This document shows, in pieces, positions 2,484 to 33,757 of a stretch of DNA of 64,000 nucleotides. Every line of letters begins with the position of its first letter. Position 1 is the stretch's first letter. Location of the stretch: the NCBI GenBank assembly GCA_947085205.1, contig CAMTVO010000020.1:21043-85042 (forward strand). Reading direction: 5' to 3'. Under the pieces are notes generated by a model. That model was not told where the DNA came from. It worked only from the letters and a program-made list of their open reading frames with translations, and did no database searches. Source of the stretch: an uncultured Nitrospiraceae bacterium. GTDB taxonomy: Bacteria; Nitrospirota; Thermodesulfovibrionia; Thermodesulfovibrionales; Dissulfurispiraceae. A program made the position numbers and the translations under genes.

Positions 2484-2499
2484 ATGGTAATTTTCACTT
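2484..2499. promoter_or_regulatory. Copy of the shared 16-bp operator-like motif (ATGGTAATTTTCACTT)
   Basis: Reverse-orientation match to the motif at 6483/13443/24375/33715. TATAAT lies at 2513-2518, at a shorter spacing than in the other copies. Confidence 0.45.
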
Positions 2500-2520
2500 C
2501 CAATTAGGATTGTATAATTT

Positions 2521-2606
2521 GTCATTCTCTGGCCCTCCTGATCAAGTCAGAGGGCATGCTTGACCAGAGAATCCAGATGCCGTCCCCGATTAAATCGGGG
2601 AATGAC
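2521..2606. repeat. REP/MITE-like nested palindromic element
   Basis: GTCATTC...GAATGAC termini with internal hairpins (GCCCTC...GAGGGC; TCCCCGATT-A-AATCGGGGA). Related to 59841-59907. Confidence 0.65.
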
Positions 2607-2689
2607 ATTATAGAAAATCTGAATTTATGACATTTTCACGCAGGTTTCAGGTTTTATATTACTGATAGATAAATAAAACGGAGGTCGCA

Positions 2690-4309
2690 ATGAACAGAAA
2701 TATCTTTTTTGTTTCGGTTTTTATTTTGTTTGTGATTTTTGCTTTTAGTTTTAATGCATGGGCATCTCCCGCAGAGATAGAGAGTGTCCCTAAAATCCAG
2801 AACATTGTCCTTTATCCGGACAGCGCAATGATAAAGAAAGAAGCAACGGTTGCGGTTAAGAAAGGCGAAAATATCATAGGGATTTCGGGGTTGACCGTAA
2901 ATTTAACTGACGAATCTGTTCAGGTGAATATTAAGGAAAAGGCTGCTGTCAGAATATCCAGTGTCAGAGTTGAAAAGACTTATCTCCAGAAGACAATGCA
3001 GGATAAGATAGAGAAACTCCAGTCAAGACTTGAAAGTATTAATGAGCTTATAAAGGAACACTCAAATGAAATCTCCGCAATAAACAGTTCCATCGAATTT
3101 TTAAAGAAGACAATTCCATTCCCTCAAAACCAGAAGGTTACACAGGCCGAGGTCGAAGGGCATGCTAAGTTTATCGAAAAATCTTTGTCGGCAAGCTACG
3201 ACAGGACTGCAAAGCTTGAAAATAAAATAAAGAAACTTAATGAAGAAAAGAGGGCAGTGGAAAATGAGCTTAAAAAACTAAGCTCATCGAGGGATGAAAG
3301 CAAAACTGTTGTAATCAATCTGCTTTCGAATGCAGACCGGGAGATTAATCTGGGACTCTCCTACATCGTTACAAAGGCGGGCTGGTCTCCACAGTACGAT
3401 GTAAGGGCTGACTCTGCTGCAGGAAGGATCGATATTGTTTGCTTTGCAACCATAACCCAGTCTACCGGCGAGGACTGGAAGAATGCGAATATCGAGATTT
3501 CTACGGCAAGGCCTTCTTACGGGCCTCCGCCGGAACTTTCCGCATGGTATGTGGATGTATACAAGCCGAGGCCTGTGGTTTATAAATACAAAAAGGCTAT
3601 TGAGGATGCGGATTTCATGATGAGCAAGGAGAAGGCGTTAGAGGCAGCTCCGGAGCAGCGATTCGAAGAGCCGAAGATAAAGGCAGAGGCGACATCATTC
3701 AGCTTTATAATCCCGGGCAAGGTCAATATCCCGTCAGACAACCAGCCGCACAGGATATTAATCTCATCCTCGTCCAAAGAGGCTAAACTCGACTATTATG
3801 CAGCGCCGAAGCTCTCGCGGTATGCGTATTTAAGGGCGGGCCTTAAAAATCCGCTTCCGTTTCCAATCTTCTCAGGGCAGATGAGTATATTTTTAGATGA
3901 GCGGTTTGTGAATACAACATCTGTTGATAAGCAAATCCTTCCTGATGATGACATGAGTTTGTCACTTGGAATCGATGAAGGAATAAAAGTAGAGAAAAAG
4001 CTCCTGAAGAAATTTACCGAATATTCCGGCGTGTTTTCGAAAGATACTCAGATAGGCTATGAATATGCGATTGACATTGTCAGCAGCAAAGATAAAGAGA
4101 TCGGCATCAATATCAGCGATAATTTCCCTGTCTCAAGAAACGAGCAGATAAAGGTCGCTCTTGAATCTCCCAAAAAAGAGGATGCAAAGATTGCTGACGA
4201 CGGAATAATATCATGGGATTTAAAGCTTAAGCCCAATGAGAAGAAAACCCTGAAAATAAAATTCAGGGTCGAACATCCGAAAGACTTGAAGATTACGGGA
4301 TTGGAGTAG
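2690..4309 (+). CDS. DUF4139/DUF4140 (MuiA-like) exported protein
   Basis: Signal peptide, N-terminal VLYPDSAMI, a coiled coil, then WSPQYDVR, QSTGEDW..ISTARP and LSLGID.I.VEKK motifs. GGAGG RBS. Confidence 0.85.
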   Translation: MNRNIFFVSVFILFVIFAFSFNAWASPAEIESVPKIQNIVLYPDSAMIKKEATVAVKKGENIIGISGLTVNLTDESVQVNIKEKAAVRISSVRVEKTYLQKTMQDKIEKLQSRLESINELIKEHSNEISAINSSIEFLKKTIPFPQNQKVTQAEVEGHAKFIEKSLSASYDRTAKLENKIKKLNEEKRAVENELKKLSSSRDESKTVVINLLSNADREINLGLSYIVTKAGWSPQYDVRADSAAGRIDIVCFATITQSTGEDWKNANIEISTARPSYGPPPELSAWYVDVYKPRPVVYKYKKAIEDADFMMSKEKALEAAPEQRFEEPKIKAEATSFSFIIPGKVNIPSDNQPHRILISSSSKEAKLDYYAAPKLSRYAYLRAGLKNPLPFPIFSGQMSIFLDERFVNTTSVDKQILPDDDMSLSLGIDEGIKVEKKLLKKFTEYSGVFSKDTQIGYEYAIDIVSSKDKEIGINISDNFPVSRNEQIKVALESPKKEDAKIADDGIISWDLKLKPNEKKTLKIKFRVEHPKDLKITGLE

Positions 4310-4327
4310 GGTAAAAGGGAGGCTCTT

Positions 4328-6482: not shown

Positions 6483-6525
6483 ATGTGAAAATTACCTTTA
6501 CGTGCGAGATTGGCGCTGATATAAT
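6483..6525 (+). promoter_or_regulatory. Operator-like motif + sigma70-type promoter
   Basis: ATGTGAAAATTACCTT (6483-6498) overlapping TTTACG-N17-TATAAT. Confidence 0.7.
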
Positions 6526-6548: not shown

Positions 6549-7538
6549 ATGAATAAAAAGATATTTATAAGCCTTTTTCTTTTTACGCTTTTCTTAAGTC
6601 CTGCTTTTGCCTCTGAAAAGCAGGAATGTCCCGTAAACCCCAAGAATATTGTTTATGAAAAATACACATCGGGGGGTAATTTTTTTGTTGTATTGATCCC
6701 TAAAGGCTGGGGCAAAAAAGAAAAGAATTTTTCACACGCTTACACAAGAACAGGGGATAAGGTATTCGGAGTAGAGCTTTCCGGACCGCATAATGCTGCT
6801 GGCTGTGTTCCAGTAGAAAAAGTACCTGGATCTGGAGGTGAGGTTATCCAAATAAAGCAGGGAACTGTCGGCACTTTCCATGAACTCCGGATAGGTGTCG
6901 CAAATATAATCAAAGCTGATTATCTTGATGAGGCTGGCACAAAAAAGCATGGTTTAATAGCTATATTGATATTATTTATTGAAGGGAATCCCCCGCAAAA
7001 AAAGGACTTTAAAGTTCATGCGGGGCAGAAGATAATAATGGACAACTACTCAGTGTATGTGGAAGAAATACGAGGAACAGTTAAAGGCTTAGTAATATTG
7101 CGGATAGAAGAGATTTCTAAATCTCCGTATAAAGACGAGGCCCGCCCGACAATCTCCGTTTTGTATTATGAGTACGGACAGTTTTTTAAAAGTTATGAGA
7201 GATATATCAACCTCAAAATAGGATCTTTCACGCGCCTCGCCCCGGAAAAAGATGTCTCTATTACAAATACGGCAGTGGCGGGAAGAGAGGCTAAAAAATT
7301 TGAGATTGAAAAATTTGAACTTATTATGCTGCCTTTTGATCCGCCTGATTTCAAGGAAGGCATCATGCATGAAATTGTCCCGCCTTCAAAGAAAGTTACA
7401 GTCATAGAAAGATACATTGTAATCCCGGCTGAGAAAGGTTTTTATGTATTGAACTACAGGGCCTCGCCTGATATTGTAAAAAGTATTGAAGGGATATTTG
7501 AAAAGATTTTAAACTCTTTTGAACCATTGACAAAATGA
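6549..7538 (+). CDS. Exported hypothetical protein, PsbP/Mog1-like termini with a possible internal insert
   Basis: Signal peptide (PAFA|SE); F.VLIPKGW near the N-terminus; VAGREAKKF and FYVLNYRA...FEKILNSF at the C-terminus. Confidence 0.6.
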   Translation: MNKKIFISLFLFTLFLSPAFASEKQECPVNPKNIVYEKYTSGGNFFVVLIPKGWGKKEKNFSHAYTRTGDKVFGVELSGPHNAAGCVPVEKVPGSGGEVIQIKQGTVGTFHELRIGVANIIKADYLDEAGTKKHGLIAILILFIEGNPPQKKDFKVHAGQKIIMDNYSVYVEEIRGTVKGLVILRIEEISKSPYKDEARPTISVLYYEYGQFFKSYERYINLKIGSFTRLAPEKDVSITNTAVAGREAKKFEIEKFELIMLPFDPPDFKEGIMHEIVPPSKKVTVIERYIVIPAEKGFYVLNYRASPDIVKSIEGIFEKILNSFEPLTK

Positions 7539-8777: not shown

Positions 8778-8915
8778 ATGAAGCCAGTAATTACTCAAGG
8801 GGACAGGACCATGATAATCAATGCAGGGCACAAAGGCGCTGTTGCAAAAGACGGCAAGTTATCAGAACCAGAAAAGATTGATTTATCAAAAATAGAAAGG
8901 TGGTGGGAAAAGTGA
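8778..8915 (+). pseudogene. 45-aa ORF resembling the C-terminal tail of a FecR-domain protein
   Basis: MKPVITQGDRTMIINAGHKGAVAKDGKLSEPEKIDLSKIERWWEK*; not in the ORF track. Confidence 0.35.
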
Positions 8916-8917
8916 AA

Positions 8918-9958
8918 ATGAAAGAGAGATTATTAAATATCGCAGAAAACAGATTACTGGTAGTTTTCCTTGTTTGCATGGGCATGACATCTATTGTTGT
9001 AATGGCACCGCGAACGGCGATTGCCGGTATCGCACTCGATTGTGAAGGATCGGCACAAGCTTATGCGAGCCACAGGCCACCAATTCCCTGTTACTGCAGA
9101 GGCGGACGGATAGTTTGCGACTCACCCGGGAGTGCATCCGGAAGTTCTTCGCAAAGAGGGCTTTCCAGCAAGAACCAGATGAAACTGAATATGCTCCAGG
9201 GGGCAATGGACGGTTTCGCGAACGCATTCATCCGCTGGATGAATGCGCCATCAACCCCTCAACAGCGCTGCCCTACCCCCGAGCAGATCGCCGAGCAACA
9301 GGAGCGGGCCAAGGCCGAATGGCAGGCCAAGGTTCAGAAGCAGATCAACGATATGGAGAGCCAATACGCGCAGATGGAACGGCAGAAGGCTGAGGTCATC
9401 AGGAGCAAGCTTCTGTCCGGGATGAGGGGGGTGGAGAGCGGCAGCCCCGCCGGGCAGTCGTATGCGCTGATGCAGTTGCGATGCAGCGCTTTCTGGAGCG
9501 TGGAGGCTGCCAGGGCATCATCGGCAACGGATGTCGAAAAGTTCAGCCGCTTTGCCGAGAAACCCGATAACGTCAGCATGACTGAATGCGCCAATAAACT
9601 TCCGGCGCCCCCCATGCCGTCGTCCGGTGACGAATTCCGCATGGATATGTACGAAACGATTATTCATGAGGTAAATCTGCGTATCCCGATGATCGAGCAG
9701 GCCAAGACAAAACAGCGCGAAGCCGATGACCGGGTTGCCGAAAAACGGCAAAAGGTTGACGATCTGAAAAACAGGCAGGGGACAGCAGTTTCCGCAGAGG
9801 ATAAACAGGCCACAGACGATCTCATGGCGGAAGCCATGCGGGAACTGGAGGTGGCCAATGCGTTGAAGAGCGAAGCCGATGCCGGGCTTGGCAAGTTGAA
9901 ATTGGAAATAGATGCCTTGAACGAGGTGGGAAACATGGCTGTCGGCGCTAAACAATAA
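8918..9958 (+). CDS. Exported Cys-containing coiled-coil hypothetical protein
   Basis: Signal peptide (AIA|G), CxC-type cysteines, long helical C-terminus. Visibly GC-richer than its flanks. Confidence 0.7.
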   Translation: MKERLLNIAENRLLVVFLVCMGMTSIVVMAPRTAIAGIALDCEGSAQAYASHRPPIPCYCRGGRIVCDSPGSASGSSSQRGLSSKNQMKLNMLQGAMDGFANAFIRWMNAPSTPQQRCPTPEQIAEQQERAKAEWQAKVQKQINDMESQYAQMERQKAEVIRSKLLSGMRGVESGSPAGQSYALMQLRCSAFWSVEAARASSATDVEKFSRFAEKPDNVSMTECANKLPAPPMPSSGDEFRMDMYETIIHEVNLRIPMIEQAKTKQREADDRVAEKRQKVDDLKNRQGTAVSAEDKQATDDLMAEAMRELEVANALKSEADAGLGKLKLEIDALNEVGNMAVGAKQ

Positions 9959-9982
9959 CCGCTCAATTAAGGAGATATCGCC

Positions 9983-11020
9983 ATGAAAAGAGCTTCGATG
10001 AACTGCATTCTTATGACGCTAGCAATCTTGCTGCTGCTCCCGCTGCCTCTCTTTGCACAGCAGGATGTCCCGGAGGGGGCAAGAGGGCATTTCAAAGCAG
10101 GGGTGGCATTGATCGAAAAAGCGAACAAACCTGCCGACTTCCTGGCGGCCATCACCGAGTTCGAGGCTGCCGCCGCCCTCGCGCCGCAGTGGCCGGACAT
10201 ACACTACAACCTGGCAAAACTTGCCGCGGAGATAGACAAGCCGGCCAAGGCCATCAAGGAATACCGCACCTACCTGACCCTGGTGCCGGCAGCGGCCGAC
10301 AGGGCTGCCGTAGAAGGAGAAATGGCTAGAATGAAAAAACTGATGGCGAGCAAGCGGAAAATCGGCCTGCCTGGCGTCAAATTTGTTGCCATGGCAGATG
10401 GCATCTGGGTGCTGCAAATTTTTCCCGGCAGCAGAGTCGCCAAAACCGGACTGCAGCGGGGGGACAAGATCGTCACGGTTGACAACACTAACGTTGCCGG
10501 GATGAATCTTGCTGATTTTTTCAAGACCGTCGAGACCAGCAGCCTGGGGCTATCGAAGGCCAGTGCGGCGCGGTTGCTCACCCGGCTGACCGGAGGCGAT
10601 GAGAAGACATCTGTGACGGTGATGATGCTTAAAGTGAAACGAGCTGGCGACGATAAGGAAATATGGGCCCTCGGCACGAAGGAAATGTTCCACTCGCAGA
10701 TACTGGAGATCGAGGAGGATGAGTTCGAGTCGGAAGTACTCAAGGCGACCCTGCCGGTGGTAGTGACGTTTTGGAACAGCGGGTGCGAGCCTTGTCGCCA
10801 ATTCGTCCCTGTCGTCGAGGCGGAAAGCCCCAAATATGCCGGCAAGATCAAGTTCGTAAACGTCAACGTGGACGAGAACATGAAACTCGCCCAACAGTTG
10901 GCGGTGAAAGGCATACCAACCATGATGGTGTTCAAGGGCGGGGCGCTGGTGCCGAGCGATACGGGAAAGCTGCCCCAGGAGAGGGTTGAAGAAATCCTGA
11001 AGAGTGCGGCGGCCCGATAA
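9983..11020 (+). CDS. Exported TPR + PDZ + thioredoxin fusion protein
   Basis: Signal peptide; TPR (PQWPDIHYNLA); PDZ (VLQIFPGSRVAKTGLQRGDKIVTVD); thioredoxin (FWNSGCEPC, VNVDEN, VKGIPTM). Confidence 0.85.
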   Translation: MKRASMNCILMTLAILLLLPLPLFAQQDVPEGARGHFKAGVALIEKANKPADFLAAITEFEAAAALAPQWPDIHYNLAKLAAEIDKPAKAIKEYRTYLTLVPAAADRAAVEGEMARMKKLMASKRKIGLPGVKFVAMADGIWVLQIFPGSRVAKTGLQRGDKIVTVDNTNVAGMNLADFFKTVETSSLGLSKASAARLLTRLTGGDEKTSVTVMMLKVKRAGDDKEIWALGTKEMFHSQILEIEEDEFESEVLKATLPVVVTFWNSGCEPCRQFVPVVEAESPKYAGKIKFVNVNVDENMKLAQQLAVKGIPTMMVFKGGALVPSDTGKLPQERVEEILKSAAAR

Positions 11021-12630: not shown

Positions 12631-12815
12631 TGAAATACATCTTTAAGATATTGTGCGCCTTTGTTTTCATTGCATCGGTTCTAAACCCTGCAACCGCATC
12701 TGAAAAGCTTGCCCCAGCAGGCCTGCCCTCGAACGCATCTATCGGGGACAGTAAGCAGGGGCCGGAGATATTTGTGCAATTGGGGCATAATCAGTGCTAT
12801 AATTCAAGCAGATAA
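12630..12815 (+). pseudogene. Truncated 5' end of an exported WD40 protein gene
   Basis: Signal peptide, then EK[insert]PEIFVQLGH matching the start of the mature WD40-caspase at 13799. Stops just before a TA module. Confidence 0.7.
12708..12761. repeat. 54-bp in-frame nested palindromic insertion
   Basis: Same outer ends as 7677-7715, with a different core (GCCTGCCCTCGAA...ATCGGGG) also seen near 59856. Confidence 0.7.
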
Positions 12816-12831
12816 AAAGGAGGTGATTTTT

Positions 12832-13020
12832 ATGAAAGAGGCAATGATAAAACTGCAAATAGAAAGCCTTGAGCAGCAGATGAAGGTTTTAAAATCTAAA
12901 ATAGTTTTCCCTAAAAAAGAAAAAACCTTATCAACAATGTATGGCATTTTTGAGGGCAAGATGGACATGTCTTTAGAGGAGATTAAGAAATATGAATATT
13001 CCTTTGAGGGTAAGGTATGA
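12832..13020 (+). CDS. Probable antitoxin
   Basis: Short ORF after an AGGAGGT RBS, overlapping the start of the PIN gene. Confidence 0.65.
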   Translation: MKEAMIKLQIESLEQQMKVLKSKIVFPKKEKTLSTMYGIFEGKMDMSLEEIKKYEYSFEGKV

Positions 13021-13403
13021 CCTATGTTGTAGATACCCATATATTTATCTGGTTTTTAGATAAGAACAAGAGACTGAATCCCCGTCATTACCAAATACTG
13101 ATTGATAAAAATAATAACTTTGTCCTGCCTGTGATTGTATTGGCAGAAATCAAACACCTTATTTCTCTAAAACGAATAAAAGTAGCTTTTGAAGAGGTTA
13201 TAGACTATCTCGGCGAGTCTGATAATTGTATTATTTATCCAGTGGATGAAGATGTTGTTGAAAAAATGCCGGACGGACTTAATATTCATGATGCTTTGAT
13301 TGTTGCAACAGGGCTTGTCTATAAAAATATGCTTGGGGAAGATGTAATACTACTTACTGAAGACGAGGAAATTATAAAAGCCGATGTTCTTCCTGTTATT
13401 TAA
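13017..13403 (+). CDS. PIN-domain (VapC-like) toxin
   Basis: YVVDTHIFIW, VLAE, HDALIVAT and LLTED acidic motifs. Confidence 0.85.
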   Translation: MTYVVDTHIFIWFLDKNKRLNPRHYQILIDKNNNFVLPVIVLAEIKHLISLKRIKVAFEEVIDYLGESDNCIIYPVDEDVVEKMPDGLNIHDALIVATGLVYKNMLGEDVILLTEDEEIIKADVLPVI

Positions 13404-13442: not shown

Positions 13443-13486
13443 ATGTGAAAATTACCTTGACCCCATAGGCCTATATTCCTTAAGAT
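13443..13486 (+). promoter_or_regulatory. Operator-like motif + sigma70-type promoter
   Basis: ATGTGAAAATTACCTT overlapping TTGACC-N18-TAAGAT. Confidence 0.65.
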
Positions 13487-13515: not shown

Positions 13516-13722
13516 ATGGTTGGTATAGGCTTGATGGAATTTATTGTTTTGTTTGTCCTTTTTGTGCCCTTCGGGTTAATGTTAATCGCATTTGTGGACA
13601 TCCTCAGGAGTGAGTTTACGGGCTCGAACAAGATTGTCTGGCTGATCGCTGTGATACTCGTTCCCTTTATTGGTCCCATAGCCTACTTTTTCATCGGCAG
13701 GAAGCAGAAGGTAAAAAAGTGA
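13516..13722 (+). CDS. PLDc N-terminal-domain (PLDc_N-like) small membrane protein
   Basis: AFVDILR...KIVWLIAVILVPFIGPIAYFFIGR. Confidence 0.85.
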   Translation: MVGIGLMEFIVLFVLFVPFGLMLIAFVDILRSEFTGSNKIVWLIAVILVPFIGPIAYFFIGRKQKVKK

Positions 13723-13798: not shown

Positions 13799-16700
13799 AT
13801 GTTTAGATTTAAGAGTTTATTGCGCTCTTTAGCGGTCTGGTTTGAGGTTATTGCCATACTGTCAATCAGCCCTGTTTCTGTCTCTGCAGCTGAAAAGCCT
13901 GAGATTTTTGTGCAACTGGGGCATACATCGTCAATAAACGTGATTGCAATATCACCGGACAACAAGTTCATCCTTTCCGGAAGTGATGACAATAGTATAA
14001 AACTCTGGGAAGCCGCCACCGGAAGGCTGATCAGAACTTTTAAAGATAATGAAGATATAAATTTCGTTTCCTTTCTGCCCGGTGGCAAATCTTTTTTTTC
14101 ACTCAACGATAAGGGTAATGTCTGTATCTGGGATATCCAGACCGGCGATAAAATAAAGGAATTTTCTTTGGGGGAAACGGGTCAAGCCAGCTTGCGATCC
14201 GCCATTTCCTATGACGGCGCTATGCTACGGGTAATCGTCGGTCTTAAACTATATGTCGCCGATATATTAACAGGAACAATAACAAAATCAATCGAGTCGC
14301 CCAAAGCAGCGCCCGTCAGCGGTTACCTCGGCTTTGGTTTTGGATCCAGAAACGTTATCACTGCCGATGGCAGACGAATGCTTTCGTCTGTGAAGGAAAA
14401 CCCCTCGGAATCGGTCATGGACAGCAAAGATAAAAAACTTATGCTCTGGGACATATCAACCGGTAGAATTATTTCTACTTTTACCGGCCATGATGATCGT
14501 ATTGACGTAATTGCCTTATCGCTCGACGATAAGCTCGCGCTCTCCGGCAGCCGTGACAAAACCGTCCGGATTTGGGATTTAAAAAGAGGAAAAGCGATAG
14601 CCACATTTGCCGGGCATCAAAAACAGATTGAAGCCGTCGCCATTTCGCCCGACCAGAAATATGTCCTTTCCGGCAGTAAGGACAACACCATGAAGCTCTG
14701 GGATATTGAGGCGGAAAAAGAAATCCGAACTTTTGCCCATGATTGCCCTGTCACCTTTGTCCGGTTTTCACCGGATGGCATGTTCGCTCTTTCCGGAGAC
14801 GATAAAGGAGCGCTGCGGATATGGGATATAAAGACCGGCATGGAAGTCAAAGCGCTGAAAAGCTATGCCACCAACTCTCGTGCCATGGCGTTATCCGCGG
14901 ACGGAAATTATGTGCTTACTGGCTCTAATGACGGACAGGTAAGGCTTTGGGACGCAGCATCAGGAAAATTGCAAAAAACGATATCCGCCCATCGTGAAGG
15001 GATTTCCGCCGTGAAATTTACGCCGGACGGCAAGTATGCCCTTTCCGCGAGTTATGACAAGACCTTAAAGTTATGGGATTTGAGCGACGGGAAACTGCAA
15101 AGAACATTTTCCGGGCATCCCGGCCAGGTTTATAAGGCCGTCATTTCTCCCGACGGATTGTATGCCTTAAGCTCGGCGCAGGAGGGCGATGTGCGGCTGT
15201 GGAATATCAGTAGTGGCGCAGAAATCAAAGCCTTTAAATTTTCCGGTATGATTAAATCTATCGGCTTTACGGCGGATAGCCGGCATCTCGTGATCGCGCA
15301 TGACCAGAAAAAATTCGGTTCAGGCAACACGGTCAAGGTTCTGACTTTAGACGGGAAAGAAGTTAAAAATTATTACGATGTTTCTCTGGGCAGATATTCC
15401 AATGATGGGAAATATTTTCTGGCCAATAGCTTTAAGGAACCGACGGACAAAGAGCAGAGGCTTTTTGATTCCGAAGCCAAACAAAAAAAACCATTCTTCC
15501 GCAACGATAGTTATAATAAAAAAACACTGGTGGAGATCGCCGACGGCAAGGTATTGGGACATTTCGGGCAGAGCGGCGCTATTGTTTATGTATCCACTTC
15601 CGCCAATAACGATATCATCTTAACAAAGAATTATTATGATCAGGACATTCGCCTTTGGGATGTCCGCACCGGCAAAGAAGTGCGCCGATTCCCCGTCAAA
15701 TTCGGATTACTTTCTCCCGATGGCAGTAAAGTCATCGCCCCGGCCGGTAAAACATTGCAAGCCTTTGATACTGCCACCGGCCGCGGTTTGCCCGCTTTTA
15801 ACGGCAGTGCGACGGGTGACATCAGCTCTTTTGCCCTTTCGGCCAAAGGCGGTTATGCTGTTACCGGTGATAATACTGGCGCCATCCAGTTTTGGGATGT
15901 GACCGGCAGTAAATTAATAAAAACCATCAAGGCTGAGGAGAGGGAGGCTATTTCCGCGGTCGCCTTTTCTCCCGACAATAAATATGCCGCTTCCCTATCC
16001 AGGTTTGGGGCGGCCAAAATCTGGGATTTGCGCGAAGGCAGCAAGGTTTCTGAATTTAAAATTGATTTTATACCCAGGTATTATGATGAGTTGGAGGCCG
16101 GCGATTATGTAGACTATGGAAATGGCATTCTGGCTTTCTCGCCCGACGGTCGCTATCTGGCTTCCGGCAGCAAACTTTGGGAAGTTTCCTCGGGAAAAAA
16201 GGCGCTGGATTTTCAAACCCCCTTTGGCCCCGGCCCCTGGGTTACATTTTCACCTGACGGAAATTATCTGCTTTCCAGAAATACGATTTGGGATGTTTTC
16301 TCAGGCCGGCGCGTAAAAACGTTGGAAAGCATCAAGGACGCAAAGTCAGTCTATTCTTCTGATGGAAAATTTATCTATGCCGCTGATGCTGAAGGGTCTT
16401 TCTATGTTGTCGATTCGGATACCGGCAAGCTTGTCCGCAAGTTTGTCAACTTTGTTTCCGCAAGGTCCTTTGAAGTGTCGCCGGACAAGAAAATGCTGAT
16501 TGCGGAAGAGACGGATTACAACGATTTGACTTTGTGGGATTTAACATCGGGCAAAAAAAGCGCTACGATCGAGATTAATCAGAGCATTTCAAGCGTATTA
16601 CTCAGCGCTGATGCGCGCAATGCCGTTTTGAATAACTGGGTTTCTGTAAGGCAATTCAACATTGCCACCGGCAAGGAAATCGCGCAATTCATCAGCTTCA

Positions 16701-19811: not shown

Positions 19812-19830
19812 AGCGTTTACCTCTTAAACA

Positions 19831-20472: not shown

Positions 20473-21245
20473 GCGAACGATATAAGGGTAATTATACCAT
20501 CAAATATGAATACTAAAAATAGGCTTTGCATAACCGCTCTTGTGGCTGCCTGCGGAATCTCTGTTATTGAAGACTTAACGCTGAATCCCTGGTAGCACGA
20601 AACTATAGAGATCAACAGTCCAAACACAAGGCTTTTTAATAAAGAGACAACCACCTCGAATATGCGGAGCGCTGAAAAGATACCCTTAAGATGCTGCAAA
20701 AAAGGCAGTTCCATGAAAATAGATGTGAATGCCAGTCCGCCTGCAATTGCCATCACCTGAAAGTAAAATGCGAGTATAAAGACAGAGACCGTAATCCCTG
20801 CAACCCTCGGAACAATGAGATAATCAAAAGGATTAATCCCCATAATCCTGAGGCTGTCGGTCTCCCTGTTGACCTTCATCGAGCCGAGCTCCGACGAAAT
20901 GGCAGTGCCGCTTCTTGCTATGATTATTATGGCTGCAAATAGCGGGCCGAGTTCCCTTACCACTGTCCAGATTAATATCTTGCCTGTAAGTACTGCATTT
21001 GAGCCAACAAGATTCACTATCTGGGTGATGATAACGATTCCTATCAATATCCCGATTGCAGCCACTTTGCTCAGGGCTTCTATCCCTGTGAAATATATTT
21101 GTTTGTAAAATACAGAACGGATTGGCGCTCTTCGCAGCAATGAAATGTTTCTGATGGAGTAGCAGAGCAGTTCATAATAGCCCTCTAAATATTTAAAGGC
21201 ATTGATTATGTTCCTCCCAATTTTCTGAGCAGTTGTTGTCATCAA
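20469..21245 (-). CDS. MlaE-family ABC permease
   Basis: VRELGPLFAAIIIIARSGTAISSELGSMKV and YLIVPRV. Confidence 0.92.
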   Translation of the reverse strand: MMTTTAQKIGRNIINAFKYLEGYYELLCYSIRNISLLRRAPIRSVFYKQIYFTGIEALSKVAAIGILIGIVIITQIVNLVGSNAVLTGKILIWTVVRELGPLFAAIIIIARSGTAISSELGSMKVNRETDSLRIMGINPFDYLIVPRVAGITVSVFILAFYFQVMAIAGGLAFTSIFMELPFLQHLKGIFSALRIFEVVVSLLKSLVFGLLISIVSCYQGFSVKSSITEIPQAATRAVMQSLFLVFIFDGIITLISFA

Positions 21246-21365: not shown

Positions 21366-22064
21366 ATGAAAAGAGACAAAAATGCGGCATTGATTATGGA
21401 GTTTCTCAAAGAGCTCCCTGTCTTCAAGGGTCTCTCTGACAGCCATTTAATGCAGTTGTCCGGCGATTTCATTATCCGCAATATAAATAAAGGCAAGACC
21501 ATATTTTACCAGTCGGACAACAGCACAGACCTTTACATCGTCCTTGAGGGCGCAGTGAGGGCATCTCTCCTGAACAATGAAGGAGAGGAGATGATACTTG
21601 CGATATTCTGCAAGGGTGACTTTTTCGGAGAGATGAGCCTCCTCGACGGCAAGCCGAGGTCTGCAACAATGATAGCAATGGAAGACGCATCTCTCGGCAT
21701 ACTAAAAAGGGAGAAGTTCCTCCTTGCAGTCAAAAATAACCCCATGATTGCTATTGACCTGCTCTCGGCAATTGTCCAGAGGATGAGAATGGCAAACGGG
21801 ATGATAGAGTCGCTCGCCTTTTTAGATGTCGGTCAGAGGCTTGTGAGGCTTCTTATGCAGATAGCCCGGACAGAGGGAGAGAAAGATAAGAGCGGTTTTT
21901 TCAGGATAAAAAGGCTTACCCACAGGGAACTTGCAGCACACACAGGCGCATCAAGGGAAGCCATAACCAAGGTTATGAAGGTACTTGCCTTTAGAGATGT
22001 AGTAAAAGAGGAAGACGGTTATTTCCTGATTTCTCCTGATGCAGAAGATGTGTATAACGAATAA
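21366..22064 (+). CDS. Crp/Fnr-family transcriptional regulator
   Basis: cNMP-binding domain (GDFFGEMSLLDGKPRSAT) and HTH (LTHRELAAHTGASREAITK). ATG 21366 preferred as start. Confidence 0.92.
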   Translation: MKRDKNAALIMEFLKELPVFKGLSDSHLMQLSGDFIIRNINKGKTIFYQSDNSTDLYIVLEGAVRASLLNNEGEEMILAIFCKGDFFGEMSLLDGKPRSATMIAMEDASLGILKREKFLLAVKNNPMIAIDLLSAIVQRMRMANGMIESLAFLDVGQRLVRLLMQIARTEGEKDKSGFFRIKRLTHRELAAHTGASREAITKVMKVLAFRDVVKEEDGYFLISPDAEDVYNE

Positions 22065-22082: not shown

Positions 22083-22125
22083 AAGTGAATTTTCACTTGA
22101 CACTATAAGTACGCCATTCTACACT
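22083..22125 (+). promoter_or_regulatory. Palindromic operator-like motif + sigma70-type promoter
   Basis: AAGTGAA-TT-TTCACTT overlapping TTGACA-N17-TACACT. Confidence 0.7.
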
Positions 22126-22177
22126 TACTTAATCTGTGCGGTATTAAAGTTTGGCTGAATCAGGAGGGTTTATTTCG

Positions 22178-23365
22178 GTGTATAAAAATGTGGTTTTGAT
22201 TTTTCTGTTTGTCTGTGTTTTTTTCGTATCAGAAGGACTGTGCGAGGTAAAATGTATTGACTCGGAAGGCGAAGCTGTCATCATGAACAATGATGTTCCC
22301 TCTGCAAAGGCAGAGGCCATTGCGCGGGCGAAATGGTCAGCTATTGAACAGACCGTTGGTGTTGAGGTAAAGGCACAATCTGTAGTCCAGAATATGGCCC
22401 TTGTTGACGATGCTGTGAGCAAGCAGATAAGAGGTGTGGTTACAGGGCATAAAATAGTGAAGGAAGAAAACAGGAAGGACACTATTTGGGTAAAAATAAA
22501 TGCCTGTGTAGAACCCACAAAGGCCAAGGAAGCGGTTTCATCTCTTGCGCTTAATAATTCTATAGCCGTGTTTATACCTGCAAGAAAGCCGAAAGTAGTA
22601 AAGGAATTCGAAGAGAAATACAAAACCCCTTACGGCAAAACACAGAGGAGCGGGCTTGAGACAAGGGACGAATATGACGAGACGAATATACTGTCCGAAA
22701 CGCTCATAGGCAGACTTATCGAGCAGGGGTATACGGTTGCCGATGTAGCTCCTACCCACGCAATGGAGGCGAGGGAAGTAGAGGACGCGATAAAAAGCGG
22801 CAATTTTCTTACGCTGAGAACCCTTATGTATAAGTTTCTTTCCAACGTGATCCTCATAGGCAAGGTAGATTACGCCATTTCCACAAGGAAGGGTGAGGAT
22901 ATAGGATACGGGGTCTCCATGCCTTTTAATAATGTGACCGTAAGGCTTACGTACCGCATCGTAATCCGCGATGCCTCGGGCAGAACGGTTATTCTTACCG
23001 CAGGAACCGAAGAAGGGAAAGGGCTTGCGATTAACGTGGAAAATGCCGCTGCCAACGGCATGAAGGATCTGTCGCAAAAGATTACGCCGGCTATTCTTGA
23101 AAAGGTTTCCCGGTATATAAAGGGAGTTGCAAAGAAGGTGCAGGTCAAGGTTACAGGCGTTAGTGATATGAGCACCAATTTTGAGGTCAAGGAAATTCTC
23201 CAGAATATAGCATGGGTAACGAATGTTGAAGAAAAGGGCCTCGGCGAGTTTATCGTAAGCTATCCTGAAAATTCGGTATACCTGGCAAACAGCATAAGCC
23301 AGAAGAGCAATTTAAAAATAATAGAATTTTCACCATATGCGATAACTGCTGTATATCATAAATAA
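22178..23365 (+). CDS. FlgT-like exported protein (FlgT-N/LPP20-like N-domain)
   Basis: GTG start after AGGAGG; signal peptide; SEGEAVI...AKAEAIARAKWSAIEQTVGV; alpha/beta middle domain. Confidence 0.65.
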   Translation: MYKNVVLIFLFVCVFFVSEGLCEVKCIDSEGEAVIMNNDVPSAKAEAIARAKWSAIEQTVGVEVKAQSVVQNMALVDDAVSKQIRGVVTGHKIVKEENRKDTIWVKINACVEPTKAKEAVSSLALNNSIAVFIPARKPKVVKEFEEKYKTPYGKTQRSGLETRDEYDETNILSETLIGRLIEQGYTVADVAPTHAMEAREVEDAIKSGNFLTLRTLMYKFLSNVILIGKVDYAISTRKGEDIGYGVSMPFNNVTVRLTYRIVIRDASGRTVILTAGTEEGKGLAINVENAAANGMKDLSQKITPAILEKVSRYIKGVAKKVQVKVTGVSDMSTNFEVKEILQNIAWVTNVEEKGLGEFIVSYPENSVYLANSISQKSNLKIIEFSPYAITAVYHK

Positions 23366-23386: not shown

Positions 23387-24358
23387 ATGAAGAAGTCAAT
23401 GATTTTAAAATTAGTGCTGATGATTATATTTTGTGGATATGTAACATTCCAATCTCCGCATGCATTTGCTGGCATTAAAAAAATAGCCGTTCTTGATTTT
23501 GAAGATGCATCTGCGACTATGCAAAACCAAGCAAAAAATCCATTGTATGTAATTATGGCATTAAAGGGGCAGCCGCTGCCTCAAAATGAGAAAGGCAAAA
23601 TTGGAAGGGCGGTCGCAGACATGCTAATTACAGAGTTAGTAAAAGACGGAACATTTAAAGTAGTAGAGAGGAGCCAGCTTGAGAAAATCTTAAGCGAACA
23701 GAAATTATCTGTAAGTGGAGTTATTGATCCTTCAGAGGTGGCTAAACTGGGAAAGATATTGGGAGTAAGTGCTGTTATTGCGGGGAGCGTTACCCAGTTT
23801 AATACAGATACATCTACAACGGGCATTCTGGGTATAGGAGTTAAAACAACTACAGCAAAGGTTGCAGTGAATGCAAGATTAATAGACACATCGACTGCTG
23901 AGGTATTAGTAGCAGTACAAGGGAATGGAGAAGAAGCAAAATCAGGAGTAAAGGTTGGAGATTTGGTTAATGTAGACCATTCGGAGTTTGAAAACTCTCT
24001 TATGGGTATCGCAACTAAAAAGGCAGTCGAAGATATTATTAAGCAGGTAAAGGAGCAATCATCAAAATTGAAGGATGCTGTTATAAATACAACTGTTGTG
24101 TATTTTGATAAGAATAACAAAAGCTGTATTATTGATGCTGGAAAAGAAGCAGGCATCGAAAAAGACATGCCATTATATGTAATAAAGATTATTAAAGAGA
24201 TAAAAAGTCCTTCGACAGGGGCTGTTATAAAACGAATAACGGATGTAATTGCGGAATTAAAAGTAACAGAAGTAGACAAGGCATCTGCAACTGCTATTTG
24301 TATTGAAGGAAAATGTGATGAAATCAGAGAGATGGATGTTGTTTCTACCGCCAAATGA
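23387..24358 (+). CDS. CsgG/HfaB-family protein with FlgT-C-like tail
   Basis: IAVLDF, DMLITELV...FKVVERSQLEKILSEQ, GKILGV..VIAGSVTQF and ARLIDTSTAEV; C-terminal IDAG...G. Confidence 0.85.
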   Translation: MKKSMILKLVLMIIFCGYVTFQSPHAFAGIKKIAVLDFEDASATMQNQAKNPLYVIMALKGQPLPQNEKGKIGRAVADMLITELVKDGTFKVVERSQLEKILSEQKLSVSGVIDPSEVAKLGKILGVSAVIAGSVTQFNTDTSTTGILGIGVKTTTAKVAVNARLIDTSTAEVLVAVQGNGEEAKSGVKVGDLVNVDHSEFENSLMGIATKKAVEDIIKQVKEQSSKLKDAVINTTVVYFDKNNKSCIIDAGKEAGIEKDMPLYVIKIIKEIKSPSTGAVIKRITDVIAELKVTEVDKASATAICIEGKCDEIREMDVVSTAK

Positions 24359-24374
24359 GATAATAACTTAATCG

Positions 24375-24417
24375 ATGTGAAAATTACCTTTACATAGGCT
24401 TTCAGAGGGAGTAAACT
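24375..24417 (+). promoter_or_regulatory. Operator-like motif + sigma70-type promoter
   Basis: ATGTGAAAATTACCTT overlapping TTTACA-N17-TAAACT. Confidence 0.7.
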
Positions 24418-24455: not shown

Positions 24456-25670
24456 ATGAATAAAAAATGCATGTCGGTATTCTTAAGTTTATTGTCACTG
24501 GTCTTTATCTTTGGATGCACAAAGCAGGAGGTTGCGAAATGTACATCTCCCGAGGACAATCCCCAGCATCACTATCTAATGGGAATGAAGGCTCTTGAGG
24601 AAGGGAAAATTGACGTTGCGCAGAGCAAGTTCGACAGGGCTGTTTACTGCGAAGAAAAATTCTCTCCTGCTTACAGCGGACTTGCCGTTGTAACTGCAGA
24701 GAAGGTTAAAAAACAGACAGATGCGGGATTTAGAAAGGTTGAGATTGACAGGGCGATGGAATATCTGAAAAAGGCAAATAAACTCTCAGAAACCAATGAA
24801 GATAAGTTTGATTACCTTATGGCAGCTATCAGGGTTCATACCGCCCTCAAACCGAACAACTGGCTTAAAACAGTAGAAGAGGCCTTTGGAGATATTCGTG
24901 AATTAAAAGTTGATGAAAATAAATTGATATACTATCAGGGCACCGAGGCCGCACAGTATTTCATGGGCCTTGCCTATCTCGAGGCGCTCGAATTCCAGCA
25001 GGCAAGAGATAAATTTGCTGATGTGCTTAATGCAAAGAGAGAGGGTAAATGGCATGAAAGGGCTGACAAGGCATGGAAAAAGGCAGACAAGATTGTCCGT
25101 GCAATGGCTGGAATAACAGTTGGTGATGTCGGCAAAAAAATAGCTGTCAAGGATACCGTTACACGCGGTGATTTAGCAGCACTGCTTATTGACGAAATGA
25201 AGATTGATAAACTCTTTGCAGGCCGTATACCTGTTCAATCCATGATTGATAAAATGAAGGCTGAATTTACACCTGCAGATATACTGAATTACCATTTTAA
25301 GGAAGAGATACTTACGATCATGAAGTGGAAGGTAAGGGGATTGGAGCCGAAATACGATACCGCAACTCAGGCGTATCTCTTTAAGCCTACGGATGTGGTG
25401 AAACGCGGGGAGATGGCGTTTATCCTCGAAGACGTTTTGATAAAGCTCACCGGAGACGAGAAGATAGCAACGGCGTTTTTCGGCCATGCGAAATCGCCGT
25501 TCCCTGATGTAAGGGCGACTTCACCGTTTTATAACGCGGTTATGAATATGACGTCGAGAGGAATAATGGAAGGCGAGCTTTCCGGTGATTTCAGGATAGA
25601 TGCGCCTGTGGATGGGGCGGAGGCGCTTCTTGCCCTGAGGGTGTTGAAACAAAAAATGAATATTTATTAA
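24456..25670 (+). CDS. TPR lipoprotein with S-layer homology (SLH)-like repeats
   Basis: Lipobox IFG|C; TPR-like helices; VTRGDLA, FKPTDVVKRGEMA and FPDV....FYNAV...SRGIMEG. Confidence 0.75.
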   Translation: MNKKCMSVFLSLLSLVFIFGCTKQEVAKCTSPEDNPQHHYLMGMKALEEGKIDVAQSKFDRAVYCEEKFSPAYSGLAVVTAEKVKKQTDAGFRKVEIDRAMEYLKKANKLSETNEDKFDYLMAAIRVHTALKPNNWLKTVEEAFGDIRELKVDENKLIYYQGTEAAQYFMGLAYLEALEFQQARDKFADVLNAKREGKWHERADKAWKKADKIVRAMAGITVGDVGKKIAVKDTVTRGDLAALLIDEMKIDKLFAGRIPVQSMIDKMKAEFTPADILNYHFKEEILTIMKWKVRGLEPKYDTATQAYLFKPTDVVKRGEMAFILEDVLIKLTGDEKIATAFFGHAKSPFPDVRATSPFYNAVMNMTSRGIMEGELSGDFRIDAPVDGAEALLALRVLKQKMNIY

Positions 25671-30796: not shown

Positions 30797-31609
30797 ATGA
30801 AAAGATTTTTAATAATGATTCTGCTTTTGATGCCTGTTTTCTCTTATGCCTCTGAAAAGCCCGTATGGGTAGAGGCGGAGGGAGAGGCATACATGAGCGA
30901 GATTGACACTCCGAAAGAGGTCATTGCGAGAGCAAAAAAGGACGCCCAGAGCAAGGCAGTCGAAAAGGCGGTAGGCGTGTTTATAAGATCACATACCCTC
31001 GTCTCGAACAGCCAGCTTGCGGAAGATCTCATCTACGCCGCTGTGAGGGGGAAGATAGAGAAGACCGAGATAATTAAAAAGGGATGGGATGATAAGGACA
31101 GGAATCTTTACAAAATAAGGCTCAAAGCCCTTATAGAGCCTGTCTATCCTGAAAAAGGGCACGGCATATCGATCAAGCTTTCGCTTTCAAAATCCGTAAT
31201 GAAAGAAGGCGATGAGGTAAAGATATTTTATCAGGCAAACAAAGAATGTTATGTATATATCTTTTCAGTTGCTGCAGACGGCTCGGTTACGCTGCTTATG
31301 CCGAATTCGATGAATCAGGAGAATCACATAAAAGCGAATAAAGCATATGAATTCCCTGTAGGGGGGAGCAGCATACGCTTAAAGGCTTTATTTTTGCCTG
31401 ATTATAAGGAAAAAGTCGCCGAGGAAAAAATTAAAATAATAGCCACAAAAAAGAGAGAGGAGATTGTGCCGCTCGGATTTCAAGAAGGTATGTTCAGGGT
31501 ATACGATGCGAAGTCCACAGGCATGATAAGCGACCTTGTTAAAAAACTTAACCAGCTTGAACCTGCTGACTGGGCAGAGGCAACTGCGGTTTATACGATT
31601 AAAAGATAA
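30797..31609 (+). CDS. Exported FlgT-N/LPP20-like + DUF4384 protein
   Basis: Signal peptide from ATG 30797; GDEVKIFYQANKECYVYIFSVAADGSVTLLMPN is DUF4384-like. Confidence 0.8.
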   Translation: MKRFLIMILLLMPVFSYASEKPVWVEAEGEAYMSEIDTPKEVIARAKKDAQSKAVEKAVGVFIRSHTLVSNSQLAEDLIYAAVRGKIEKTEIIKKGWDDKDRNLYKIRLKALIEPVYPEKGHGISIKLSLSKSVMKEGDEVKIFYQANKECYVYIFSVAADGSVTLLMPNSMNQENHIKANKAYEFPVGGSSIRLKALFLPDYKEKVAEEKIKIIATKKREEIVPLGFQEGMFRVYDAKSTGMISDLVKKLNQLEPADWAEATAVYTIKR

Positions 31610-31651
31610 GGATAATTTTCACCTTCCAAGAAGTTTTTTCTGGTATATAAT
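31609..31651 (+). promoter_or_regulatory. Degenerate operator-like motif + promoter
   Basis: AGGATAATTTTCACCT begins 37 nt before TATAAT (31646), the same offset as most other copies. Confidence 0.5.
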
Positions 31652-31734
31652 GAGTAACTGAAGGTAATAAGGCTGCATACGGTAAAAGAGGAAGTTTTTA
31701 TATAATAATGTAAAATTAAATAGGGGGTTTCAAT

Positions 31735-32085
31735 ATGCAAGCTGTAAGACATGAGGTATTAAATCTTACTGAAGCTGAAAAGCTTGCATTAAATGAAGTT
31801 ATAGCTGCCTTAAAAAGAGACTGGCCTTCTGTTAAATTCAAGCTATTTGGCTCAAAGGTAAATGGAACCTCTGACGAAGAGTCGGATTTAGACCTTTTAA
31901 TTATGCTTCCCTGTCATGTAACTAATGATATAAGGCGGCAGATAGTCCACAAGGTTTTCGATATAAATCTTAAATATGAAACTAATATTAGTGTATTTAT
32001 TGTTTCAGAAGATGAATGGCAAAAAGCTCCTCTTTCTCTTCTTCCTATTCATGCATTTATTGAAGAGGAAGGGGTTTCCTTATGA
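31735..32085 (+). CDS. Minimal nucleotidyltransferase (MNT-type antitoxin)
   Basis: LFGSKVNG..DEESDLDLLI. Confidence 0.88.
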   Translation: MQAVRHEVLNLTEAEKLALNEVIAALKRDWPSVKFKLFGSKVNGTSDEESDLDLLIMLPCHVTNDIRRQIVHKVFDINLKYETNISVFIVSEDEWQKAPLSLLPIHAFIEEEGVSL

Positions 32086-32481
32086 GTAACAAAGAGGAAC
32101 TAAAGGAACTTATCCGATATTGGTTTGAAAAATCGCATGAATCTCTTGACGCAGCCCGTGATGAACTGAAGGCAGGCCGTCTTTCCTTTTCGGTGAACCG
32201 AATTTATTATTCTTGTTTTTATGCGGTCAGCGCAATCTTGCTTCAAGAAAAACTTCGGTTTAAGAAGCACTCCGGTGTGAGGGGCCGTATTACATCAACA
32301 TCTCGTCAAATCAGGGAAAGTAAGTCATGAGCATGGGAAACTGTATGACGAACTTTTTGAAGCTCGCCAGAGAGGCGATCATATAGAGTTTGTCAGCTTT
32401 GAGGAAGAACAGGTAAAAGACTGGCTTCAACAGGCAAATCAATTTGTTGAGGCAATTAAGCGTTTAATCGAAAATGACTGA
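32082..32481 (+). pseudogene. HEPN-domain protein, frameshifted by an extra G near 32283
   Basis: NRIYYSCFYAV and KHSGV. The shifted frame continues AVLHQHLVKSGK...LFEARQRGDH...FVEAIKRLIEND*. Confidence 0.82.
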
Positions 32482-32508
32482 CTTTTTTCAGGAGGTGGGG
32501 TTACGAAA

Positions 32509-33720
32509 ATGAAGGGTAATTTAATTTCTTTGATCAGCGTCATCTTTATTCTGCTTGCGGGCATGGCGATGACAGGGTGTGTGACAACAACAGCGAGAAC
32601 ACCACTAATGCAAGCTGTAGAACAAAGCGACAGCAACGCTATCCGAGCTTTGCTTGATAAGGGAGCAGATATAAACGAACAAAGCGACTATGATATAGGA
32701 CCCGGAGGCAAGGGTTGGACTGCCTTACATCTTGCCGCAGTGAAAGATGATATAAAAGTCATTCGTTTATTGTTGGACTATGGTGCAGACCCAGGCATTA
32801 CAACTAAATTTGGTTGGACACCATTGAAGTGGGCGGAGCAGAAAGGCAATAACTTTGTTGCAGGGATGCTCAAGGAGGCTATGGAAAAACGCTATGTGGT
32901 TGACAAGAAACCTACCCATATTACGACTGAAAAACCATTGAAATCCGATGTTGACGAACTTCTAATATTTGTAAACGAGCATAAGGTTATCGGAGATCAG
33001 GATATAGCCATTGTCATTGGCATAGAAAAGTATCAGAATATCCCGAAGTCCGACTACTCAGCAGGTGATGCAAAACTCGTAAAGTCATATTTTAAGGCAC
33101 TCGGGTTTGCAGAGAGAAACATAGAATTCATCACAGATGAAAGGGCGACAAAATCATCCATTGAAAAATCCATAGAGGCATGGCTTCCTAACAGGGTTAA
33201 AAAAGACAGTAAGGTTATTGTCTATTATTCAGGACACGGAGCGCCTGAGCCAAAGACAGGAGACGCTTATATTGTCCCATTTGACGGAGACCCGAATTAT
33301 CTTGAGGTTACCGGGTATCCATTAAAGAGGCTTTACGATAAACTTGGGAAATTGCAAGTTGCAGAGGTTGTAGTTCTTCTTGACTCATGCTTCTCAGGCG
33401 CAGGCGGCAGGAGTGTTTTAGCAAAAGGAGCAAGACCATTGGTGATGATGACAGAGGCATCGGTAATATCGTCAAATATGGCTATCCTTTCTGCAACACA
33501 AGGCACACAGATAAGCACATCATCACCTGAAAAAAGGCATGGGGTATTCACATATTACTTTCTCAAGGCATTAAAAGAAGGAAAGAAGACAATTGCTGAG
33601 ATTTATGAATACATCAAACCGTTGGTGGAGGACGAGGCAAAGACTCTTAATGTCCAGCAAAGCCCGAGCATAAGTCCTGATGCGGAGAAACTGAAGGGGC
33701 GGTTTATTTTGAGACGGTGA
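32509..33720 (+). CDS. Ankyrin-repeat + caspase (C14) lipoprotein
   Basis: Lipobox MTG|C; ankyrin repeats (TPLMQAV, GWTALHLAA, GWTPLKWA); VIGIEKY, YYSGHG, LDSCFSG and HGVFTY. Confidence 0.92.
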   Translation: MKGNLISLISVIFILLAGMAMTGCVTTTARTPLMQAVEQSDSNAIRALLDKGADINEQSDYDIGPGGKGWTALHLAAVKDDIKVIRLLLDYGADPGITTKFGWTPLKWAEQKGNNFVAGMLKEAMEKRYVVDKKPTHITTEKPLKSDVDELLIFVNEHKVIGDQDIAIVIGIEKYQNIPKSDYSAGDAKLVKSYFKALGFAERNIEFITDERATKSSIEKSIEAWLPNRVKKDSKVIVYYSGHGAPEPKTGDAYIVPFDGDPNYLEVTGYPLKRLYDKLGKLQVAEVVVLLDSCFSGAGGRSVLAKGARPLVMMTEASVISSNMAILSATQGTQISTSSPEKRHGVFTYYFLKALKEGKKTIAEIYEYIKPLVEDEAKTLNVQQSPSISPDAEKLKGRFILRR

Positions 33721-33757
33721 AAATTACCTTGACTTCATGGCTCAGGCAGGGTAGTTT
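33715..33757 (+). promoter_or_regulatory. Operator-like motif + sigma70-type promoter
   Basis: CGGTGAAAATTACCTT overlapping TTGACT-N17-TAGTTT and the upstream stop codon. Confidence 0.62.

Follow-up and report, generated by a model that had tools for sequence, protein, structure and literature searches.

Crp-family regulators and receptor-like cyclases

In S. meliloti, the receptor-like cyclases CyaD1, CyaD2 and CyaK are associated with the Crp-family regulator Clr, and a receptor-like cyclase adjoins the regulator (PMC5498481; PMC10187061; PMC10127613). According to the accessible parts of these articles, the targets of Clr include the exported FecR-domain protein SMc02177 and the TPR protein SMb20495 (PMC5498481), its site is a palindrome of a non-CAP type (HGTYHC-N4-GRWACA), and the promoters that it activates carry sites from -42 to -76. 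We analysed a 64,000-nucleotide stretch of the genome of an uncultured Nitrospiraceae bacterium (G000:C20:21043-85042, hereafter the window), in which a 16-bp palindromic operator recurs upstream of genes predicted to code mostly for exported proteins, in an island that encodes a Crp/Fnr regulator (hereafter Crp) and a CHASE2-containing adenylate cyclase. Common to both systems are thus the proximity of a receptor-like cyclase to the Crp-family regulator, a TPR protein and an exported FecR-domain protein among the targets, and a non-CAP palindrome.

The two systems also differ. Neither a Clr-type helix nor a Clr box was found, as the recognition helix reads REAITK here and RPKVNR in Clr, and the Clr box, as described in the accessible text, keeps G2-T3, whereas here the invariant G lies one base closer to the dyad. 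The targets here are caspase, CHAT, transglutaminase, CsgG, FlgT-like and SLH proteins, the operators stand almost solely at the class II position, and there is no known plant host. By analogy, the system would work like CyaD1-Clr, but it is not a Clr.

With E. coli CAP, the regulator shares the fold, the equivalents of E72, R82 and S83, the R180-E181 pair and a dimer site in the -35 region (PMC10187061, in the parts available). It differs by a Lys at position 185, an Ala at 182 and A-N instead of T127-S128. Moreover, its operator is G-K-K-A-A-W·W-T-T-M-M-C (the dot marks the dyad), whose most CAP-like version reads TGTGA-N4-TCACA and not N6, and its regulon is small and local (~9 sites), with intact -35 boxes. 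By sequence the best Crp hit is TTHA1437 of Thermus thermophilus (4EV0), which is ~32% identical. An altered T-S motif, a small regulon and sites only remotely CAP-like are common to both, while cAMP (cyclic AMP) binding is a property of TTHA1437, whose regulon, in contrast, includes CRISPR-Cas (PMC10187061, in the parts available).

We propose, with a probability of about 0.6, that the operator defines a cAMP-Crp class II regulon of sigma70 promoters that would be activated for the production of exported proteins. The operator is in any case a real, conserved regulatory element, and its geometry is unreported in the literature searched. Neither the motif or regulon nor the N4 geometry for the CRP family was found in that literature, which left out most subscription papers; supplements, Table 1 of PMC10187061 or RegPrecise could hold a similar motif. 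Term searches of PMC3590769 and PMC12531629 gave no mention of Nitrospirota in the portions of these articles that were covered.

A recurrent operator in the window and the genome

An earlier note on this DNA had listed seven 16-mers, which are all present in the window. They are given here with the regulator gene and a further site outside the window; offsets run from the operator to the -10 hexamer.

C20:15422, outside the window, upstream: operator heading the FecR operon
2484-2499, + strand: operator in GGT-first orientation, ahead of the DUF4139/MuiA-like gene 2690-4309; sole TATAAT at offset 29
6483-6498, + strand: operator ahead of the exported protein gene 6549-7538; -35 TTTACG beginning in the operator's final two bases, -10 TATAAT at 6520-6525 (offset 37)
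13443-13458, + strand: operator ahead of genes for a small PLDc_N membrane protein (13516-13722) and a WD40-caspase (13799-17959); -35 TTGACC, -10 TAAGAT (offset 38)
21366-22064, + strand: Crp/Fnr regulator gene (crp); cyclic nucleotide monophosphate (cNMP) pocket E89 and R98-S99, C-helix A145-N146 at the position of CAP T127-S128, F-helix R197-E-A-I-T-K202
22083-22098, + strand: symmetric operator immediately 3' of crp; -35 TTGACA, 17 nt, -10 TACACT at 22120-22125 (offset 37)
24375-24390, + strand: operator ahead of the SLH lipoprotein gene 24456-25670 and subsequent exported genes; -35 TTTACA, -10 TAAACT at 24412-24417 (offset 37)
31609-31624, + strand: operator in reverse orientation, GATAA variant, ahead of a nucleotidyltransferase-HEPN pair (31735-32330) and an ankyrin-caspase gene (32509-33720); -10 TATAAT at 31646-31651 (offset 37)
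33715-33730, + strand: operator ahead of genes for a lipoprotein (33777-36086), a caspase (36120-37742) and a transglutaminase (37752-39365); -35 TTGACT, -10 TAGTTT at 33752-33757 (offset 37)

The core GKKAAWWTTMMC has six matches in the window, the GATAA variant at 31609 being a seventh site outside these six. Shuffled sequences gave 0.39 matches on average; 0/100 shuffles attained six. The note had not noticed the motif in the housekeeping half, and the right-hand 30 kb, past 33.7 kb, indeed has zero GKKAAWWTTMMC matches. In the whole genome (1.89 Mb), exact GTGAAAATTACC occurs six times, compared with 0.21 expected from a third-order Markov model, and a looser pattern 14 times compared with 7.8 expected. 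A scan with a position weight matrix (PWM) built from the seven sites gave 25 hits, the top 10 of which include all seven sites, the intergenic C20:15422 and C41:25820 and one hit in coding sequence. The best -10 of C20:15422 is one base farther from the site than usual.

A -10-like hexamer does stand at 37 nt in five sites (6483, 22083, 24375, 31609 and 33715) and at 38 nt at 13443, so that the class II geometry put forward in the note holds for six promoters, as its title said, but not for 2484, which lacks this spacing because its sole TATAAT stands at offset 29. This operator has possibly decayed; in G018, the operator ahead of a similar DUF4139/MuiA-like gene has its -10 at offset 37. The stretch from site 2484 to the DUF4139 gene contains a short inverted-repeat element (2560-2605), with a similar string on C14 near 77.8 kb; the element may have disturbed this promoter. 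Several of the other sites are conserved in relatives: the one following crp in G008, G034, L094 and L095, 24375 in G008, G018, G041, G042, G051, G054 and G059, the arrangement at 31609 in G008, and 33715 before the orthologous gene in at least eight genomes.

Symmetry of the operator and promoter geometry

The operator is a pseudo-palindrome conserved across the order, with the half-site wwG(G/T)(G/T)AAw and the full dyad wwGKKAAw·wTTMMCww. We analysed its geometry on intergenic matches from the crp-positive genomes and from G033; 102 were found; the next gene sufficed to orient 64 of them, 28 were ambiguous and 10 from other genomes were excluded. TAnnnT is present at offset 37 in 36 of the 64 gene-oriented sites, compared with 5/64 on the opposite strand. 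In these sites a TTGACA-like sequence starts in the last two bases of the operator, and nothing further is conserved between the operator and the -10.

Testing both strands of 78 asymmetric sites gave a -10 peak at offset 37 each way (38 and 16 sites), with averages of 2.4 and 1.6 at the other offsets, offset 39 (the TATAAT shadow) being omitted from these means. The peak persisted after removal of similar spacers (25/65 and 9/70). The half-sites combine freely: among 77 sites chosen for a -10 at offset 37, 54 are GTG..ACC, 16 GGT..CAC, four GTG..CAC, two GGT..ACC and one GGG..CCC. As the same spacing is found in both orientations, the operator unit is the dyad. If the -10 spans -12 to -7, this two-fold site, which lies at a fixed distance and abuts the -35, is centred near -41.5 relative to the start predicted from the -10. 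By the E. coli CAP figure, -41.5 is the class II position of CRP/FNR-family activators. That the distance is kept to the exact base whichever way the site faces suggests an activator in contact with the polymerase, and the effect of the bound protein is very likely activation.

The two orientations have different promoters. In the forward orientation, the -35 is near consensus in 38/54 and overlaps the operator by 2 bp, whereas in the reverse orientation only 3/16 have a -35 at 5/6 or better and 10/16 have an extended -10, with the spacing kept. The strong, overlapping forward boxes would also suit a Crp that binds the operator but represses, one form of an improbable alternative whose other form is a Crp that works without cAMP or with another nucleotide. 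However, a repressor would not need to stand at a distance exact to 1 bp in each of the two orientations, including at promoters with a poor -35.

That the motif is instead a promoter element, either of an alternative extracytoplasmic function (ECF) sigma factor released by FecR or as an extended -35 or UP element, is very improbable and largely refuted. A FecR domain is found within the regulon, and the core GAAAAT resembles ECF -35 elements. But the element is palindromic and works both ways, no conserved -10 is found 16-17 nt downstream (~0.0-0.2 bits at positions 27-37), the elements that are conserved downstream are TTGACA and TAnAnT, and FecR starts with a signal peptide-like segment. 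The operator is also present in only two of 114 intergenic consensus-like sigma70 promoters.

Co-occurrence of the operator and crp

We searched 221 genomes of the order with a Crp profile and for the exact 14-mer GTGAAWWTTACCTT. At least two copies are present in 39/60 genomes with a Crp orthologue and in 10/161 without, counts in which kin genomes are not independent, so that a Fisher test exaggerates the association; the contrast nevertheless recurs within seven families (f1, f5, f6, f8, f9, f10 and f11). In the fetched loci, 70/84 sites from crp-positive genomes are intergenic, compared with 14/36 from crp-negative ones, five of these 14 being from G033, whereas all four sites of G058 lie in coding sequence. 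In many genomes the operator or a variant is found within ~300 bp of crp, with differing neighbours, and in G028 and G090 it heads crp itself; in the present genome, no operator was found at the promoter of crp. The nearest named relatives of the regulator belong to the Nitrospirota, Thermodesulfovibrionales, and a scan of the flanks of more distantly related Crp genes (65 loci, 975 kb) returned nine PWM hits, two of them outside open reading frames (ORFs), and thus no evidence of the system beyond the Nitrospirota.

The comparative evidence, i.e. co-occurrence and fixed spacing, agrees with the view of the note that the island is one regulon, although this regulon is not confined to the island as seen in the window but extends past it. 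Co-occurrence and the sites beside crp in many contexts also support its choice of the resident Crp as the reader, and binding of the operator by Crp is likely.

We consider it unlikely that the palindrome is bound by another dimeric transcription factor with its gene at some other locus, and that crp simply lies nearby or is itself controlled by the regulon. In favour of this reading, the operator is unlike the CRP-family sites in the literature searched though the protein keeps R-E, promoter-type sites persist in six or more genomes in which no crp was detected, and certain genomes with Lys-type crp have no sites. Conversely, the association with crp is repeated in seven families, the island core has no other regulator, a Lys-to-Gln change in the recognition helix accompanies the loss of the sites, and -41.5 is the class II position of the Crp family. 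In addition, the exceptions are mostly fragmented assemblies that also miss the neighbours of crp, and in one case the crp gene is broken. Even with another factor as the binder, the regulon and its promoters would remain valid. Housekeeping-type Crp paralogues (TVET/TTET helix) were considered as readers and rejected: they are present in G000 and G033 but also in site-free genomes, so that they fail to explain the distribution of the sites, a conclusion drawn without the third G000 paralogue (C15).

The Crp regulator and its likely reading of the operator

The crp product belongs to the Crp family according to Pfam, with 79 bits for cNMP_binding (cut-off 27.5) and 34 bits for HTH_Crp_2 (cut-off 27), and its fold matches GlxR, Mtb CRP, TTHA1437, Clr and CAP. 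An AlphaFold monomer (predicted template modelling score 0.59, hinge unresolved) confirmed the family and was uninformative on helix spacing.

E72, R82 and S83 of CAP are the phosphoribose signature of cNMP receptors (PMC10187061, accessible part). Of their equivalents, mapped by motif, E89 and R98 are invariant (14/14) and S99 is found in 12/14. The C-helix pair at the position of CAP T127-S128 is A/T then N/D, and T-E in the clade with a Gln helix described below. A Crp that acts without cAMP or with another nucleotide would be in line with A-N/T-D in place of the T-S of CAP and with G017 and G028, which have sites and crp without the island cyclase. Against it stand the invariant E89 and R98, the TTHA1437 protein of Thermus, which binds cAMP despite Ala-Asp at these C-helix positions (PMC10187061, accessible part), and the cyclase orthologue found in 14/54 genomes, all of which carry operator sites. 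The ligand is very probably cAMP, and the link to a cyclic nucleotide signal suggested in the note gains from the presence of a CHASE2 adenylate cyclase in the same island.

The orthologues have the recognition helix R-E-A/G/S-x-x-K. Gln replaces Lys202 in one clade, and all six surveyed genomes of this clade have zero copies of the 14-mer, compared with three in the Lys-bearing sister G231. In the Gln clade (L012, L013, L106, L256 and L258-L260), the Ser of the pocket is replaced by Cys, and the gene, where its locus was viewed, lies beside receiver/histidine-kinase genes and not in the island. It probably controls a separate regulon with its own site.

The note had remarked that the site differs from TGTGA-N6-TCACA. 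This is correct; the operator is a distinct palindrome and not a degenerate CRP box: in the -41.5 register, 68/77 sites match at most 2/10 positions of the canonical box. In shifted registers the match reaches a maximum of 6/10 at +1, with one site reaching 8 at -1. A canonical box in a shifted register was rejected, because it predicts a 2-nt difference in the distance to the -10 between orientations, which is not seen; sites of the GGT..ACC form without TGTGA also exist. The most CAP-like form of the operator was found in L102, and relative to the TGTGA of CAP the core lies 1 bp inward in each half-site. In CAP, R180 and E181 read G2 and G4, and Clr shows that contacts can move in the CRP family, but via an altered helix (PMC10187061, accessible part). 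A speculative recognition code for the present regulator would have Arg197 contact the invariant G, Glu198 the amino group of the C/A opposite G/T, and Lys202 the keto group of G/T.

Several observations weigh against a cAMP-Crp class II regulon. The chief problem concerns structure: the invariant G is at position 3 of the operator, a misfit to the usual target of an Arg-Glu F-helix. With respect to the promoters, near-consensus -35 boxes such as those of the forward orientation (38/54) are unusual for activator-dependent promoters, and in the gene-oriented subset only 3/12 reverse-orientation sites have a -10 at offset 37. Promoter-like sites without a detected crp are found in G033 (five intergenic sites; 100% complete), G185 (three sites; one contig, 91%), G157, G092, G062 and G207, and G103 (five copies) and G220 (two) also lack crp, the SLH gene being present in G103. 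Conversely, 14 of the 60 crp-positive genomes are without the 14-mer, eight of them with Lys-type crp; G010 has a Lys-type crp but no GTGAAWWTTACC, island cyclase or SLH gene; and the sites and crp of G017 and G028 come without an island cyclase orthologue. Finally, the Gln-bearing genomes form one clade and thus represent a single event.

Some of these exceptions are qualified by other observations. The SLH gene is missing together with crp in G033, G092, G157 and G185, which would fit loss or missing assembly; G185 is one contig. In G135, another apparent exception, crp carries an internal deletion. Among the eight Lys-type genomes without the exact 14-mer, G034, G044, G068 and G124 have variants beside crp, and three others form a distant clade.

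Proposed mechanism

In a cAMP-Crp class II regulon, an outside cue would be conveyed by the exported FecR/TPR proteins to the CHASE2 domain, and the cyclase would make cAMP that loads the Crp dimer. Crp-cAMP would then bind G-K-K-A-A half-sites 1 bp nearer the dyad than the TGTGA of CAP and, at -41.5, touch RNA polymerase as a class II activator at sigma70-type promoters. The programme turned on would comprise exported caspase/CHAT proteases, transglutaminases, ring-like envelope proteins (CsgG, FlgT, SLH) and the FecR-cyclase operon; as this operon is among the targets, there would probably be positive feedback.

More tentatively, we suggest that a Nitrospirota-specific Crp clade keeps the Arg-Glu helix of CAP but reads half-sites 2 bp closer to each other (N4), and that the CHASE2 cyclase, Crp and the sensor operon form a self-amplifying cAMP switch. 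This switch may commit the cell to an extracytoplasmic caspase/CHAT/transglutaminase programme that builds or remodels an outer-membrane ring structure. CRP-family sites are a textbook example of a fixed protein-DNA code, and a standard Arg-Glu member that reads an inward-shifted palindrome would, if true, represent a second register. For bacterial caspases and transglutaminases that are exported, the regulon would also supply a trigger in the form of cAMP made by a CHASE2 sensor. The motif can be used as a search key for the regulon in a phylum for which the literature searched holds no such description.

Targets of the operator

Judging from N-terminal hydropathy, the targets are mostly exported proteins. 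By a crude rule, 46 of the 59 first genes with an identifiable start (from 72 sites) code for an N-terminal hydrophobic segment, compared with 26% of G000 ORFs. Among 26 target proteins scanned, those outside the island include TPR, TPR-CHAT, caspase, DUF4384 and FecR proteins as well as some others (radical SAM, glycosyltransferase 4 and small antitoxin-like proteins).

In genus g33, the first gene after the operator codes for an exported peptide of 80-86 residues (L053:8670-8909, L197:11913-12170, L202:16525-16764, L203:10329-10568 and L208:5179-5418), a candidate signal or ligand. One of these peptides narrowly exceeds the threshold for a Pfam family of Cys-knot type.

A near-identical 50-bp promoter unit, with a reverse operator and an extended -10, is found at unrelated places (G000:C41:25820, i.e. 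L003:13821; G008:C1:791618; G014:C23:2222 and 2989; G018:C81:781; G013:C54:29202). The unit appears to move together with a family of TPR genes. In G000 the gene that follows, for an exported protein, is short and apparently truncated; in G013, where no crp orthologue was detected, the unit occurs once.

The gene island and its cyclase

The island starts 5.5 kb ahead of the window. In addition to the genes named above, it contains the following.

From C20:15422 onwards, outside the window: FecR gene (product with a signal peptide), DUF4384 gene, WD40 remnant, CHASE2 adenylate cyclase gene (C20:18184-20307) and TPR-CHAT gene
101-2473, + strand: 3' part of the TPR-CHAT gene, closing this run
17978-21245, - strand: MlaE/MlaF/MlaD-like ABC genes and a TPR lipoprotein gene, divergent from crp; conserved island core
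22151-23365, behind operator 22083: FlgT_N-like gene, slightly below the Pfam cut-off
23387-24358, behind operator 22083: CsgG gene

The cyclase is of class III and carries DIRGFT, KYIGD and TAMGDTVNLSSRLE; Lys and Thr occupy the positions by which adenylate cyclases select adenine. Its gene clusters with crp, FecR and TPR genes, as in a CyaD1-Clr-type module. In the window, the gene order is DUF4139, WD40-caspase, Mla-like ABC genes, crp, FlgT_N-like, CsgG, SLH, transglutaminases and more caspases, and the transglutaminases and caspases have their catalytic motifs (His/Cys or Cys/His/Asp).

A comparison of 29 island loci shows crp, the SLH gene and the gene beside it to be the most shared, each called in 11 genomes, followed by the cyclase gene (10) and the FecR, DUF4384, MlaE and transglutaminase genes (nine). 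Crp is the sole DNA-binding protein encoded by the conserved island genes, and no second one and no recombinase were found among the widely shared genes of these loci. The latter observation bears on the idea that the operator is a recombination or insertion site between shuffled cassettes, the most improbable of the alternatives. Gene order does differ among relatives, and toxin-antitoxin-like cassettes often follow the operator; but a fixed-distance promoter is found on one side only, and most gene junctions are without an operator.

The toxin-antitoxin-like pairs (nucleotidyltransferase-HEPN, PIN, DUF433 and DUF2442) are often inserted directly before or after operator promoters, at 31735-32330, 12709-13403 and 39377-39763 in the window and in L036, L057, L285, L289 and L290. 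The HEPN gene of the first pair codes for just 82 residues and may be truncated. PADLOC gave domain-level hits only. The Mla-like transporter and the TPR lipoprotein accompany the island in eight to nine genomes, and no operator was seen upstream of the Mla-like genes in the present genome. At G000:C20:17457-18184 (L002:3458-4185), a WD40-caspase gene has shrunk to N- and C-terminal remnants, with a longer version at this place in G008. Finally, two exported-looking genes at 8900-11020 have ~51% GC inside an island of 42%, and the second one codes for a C-terminal thioredoxin domain.

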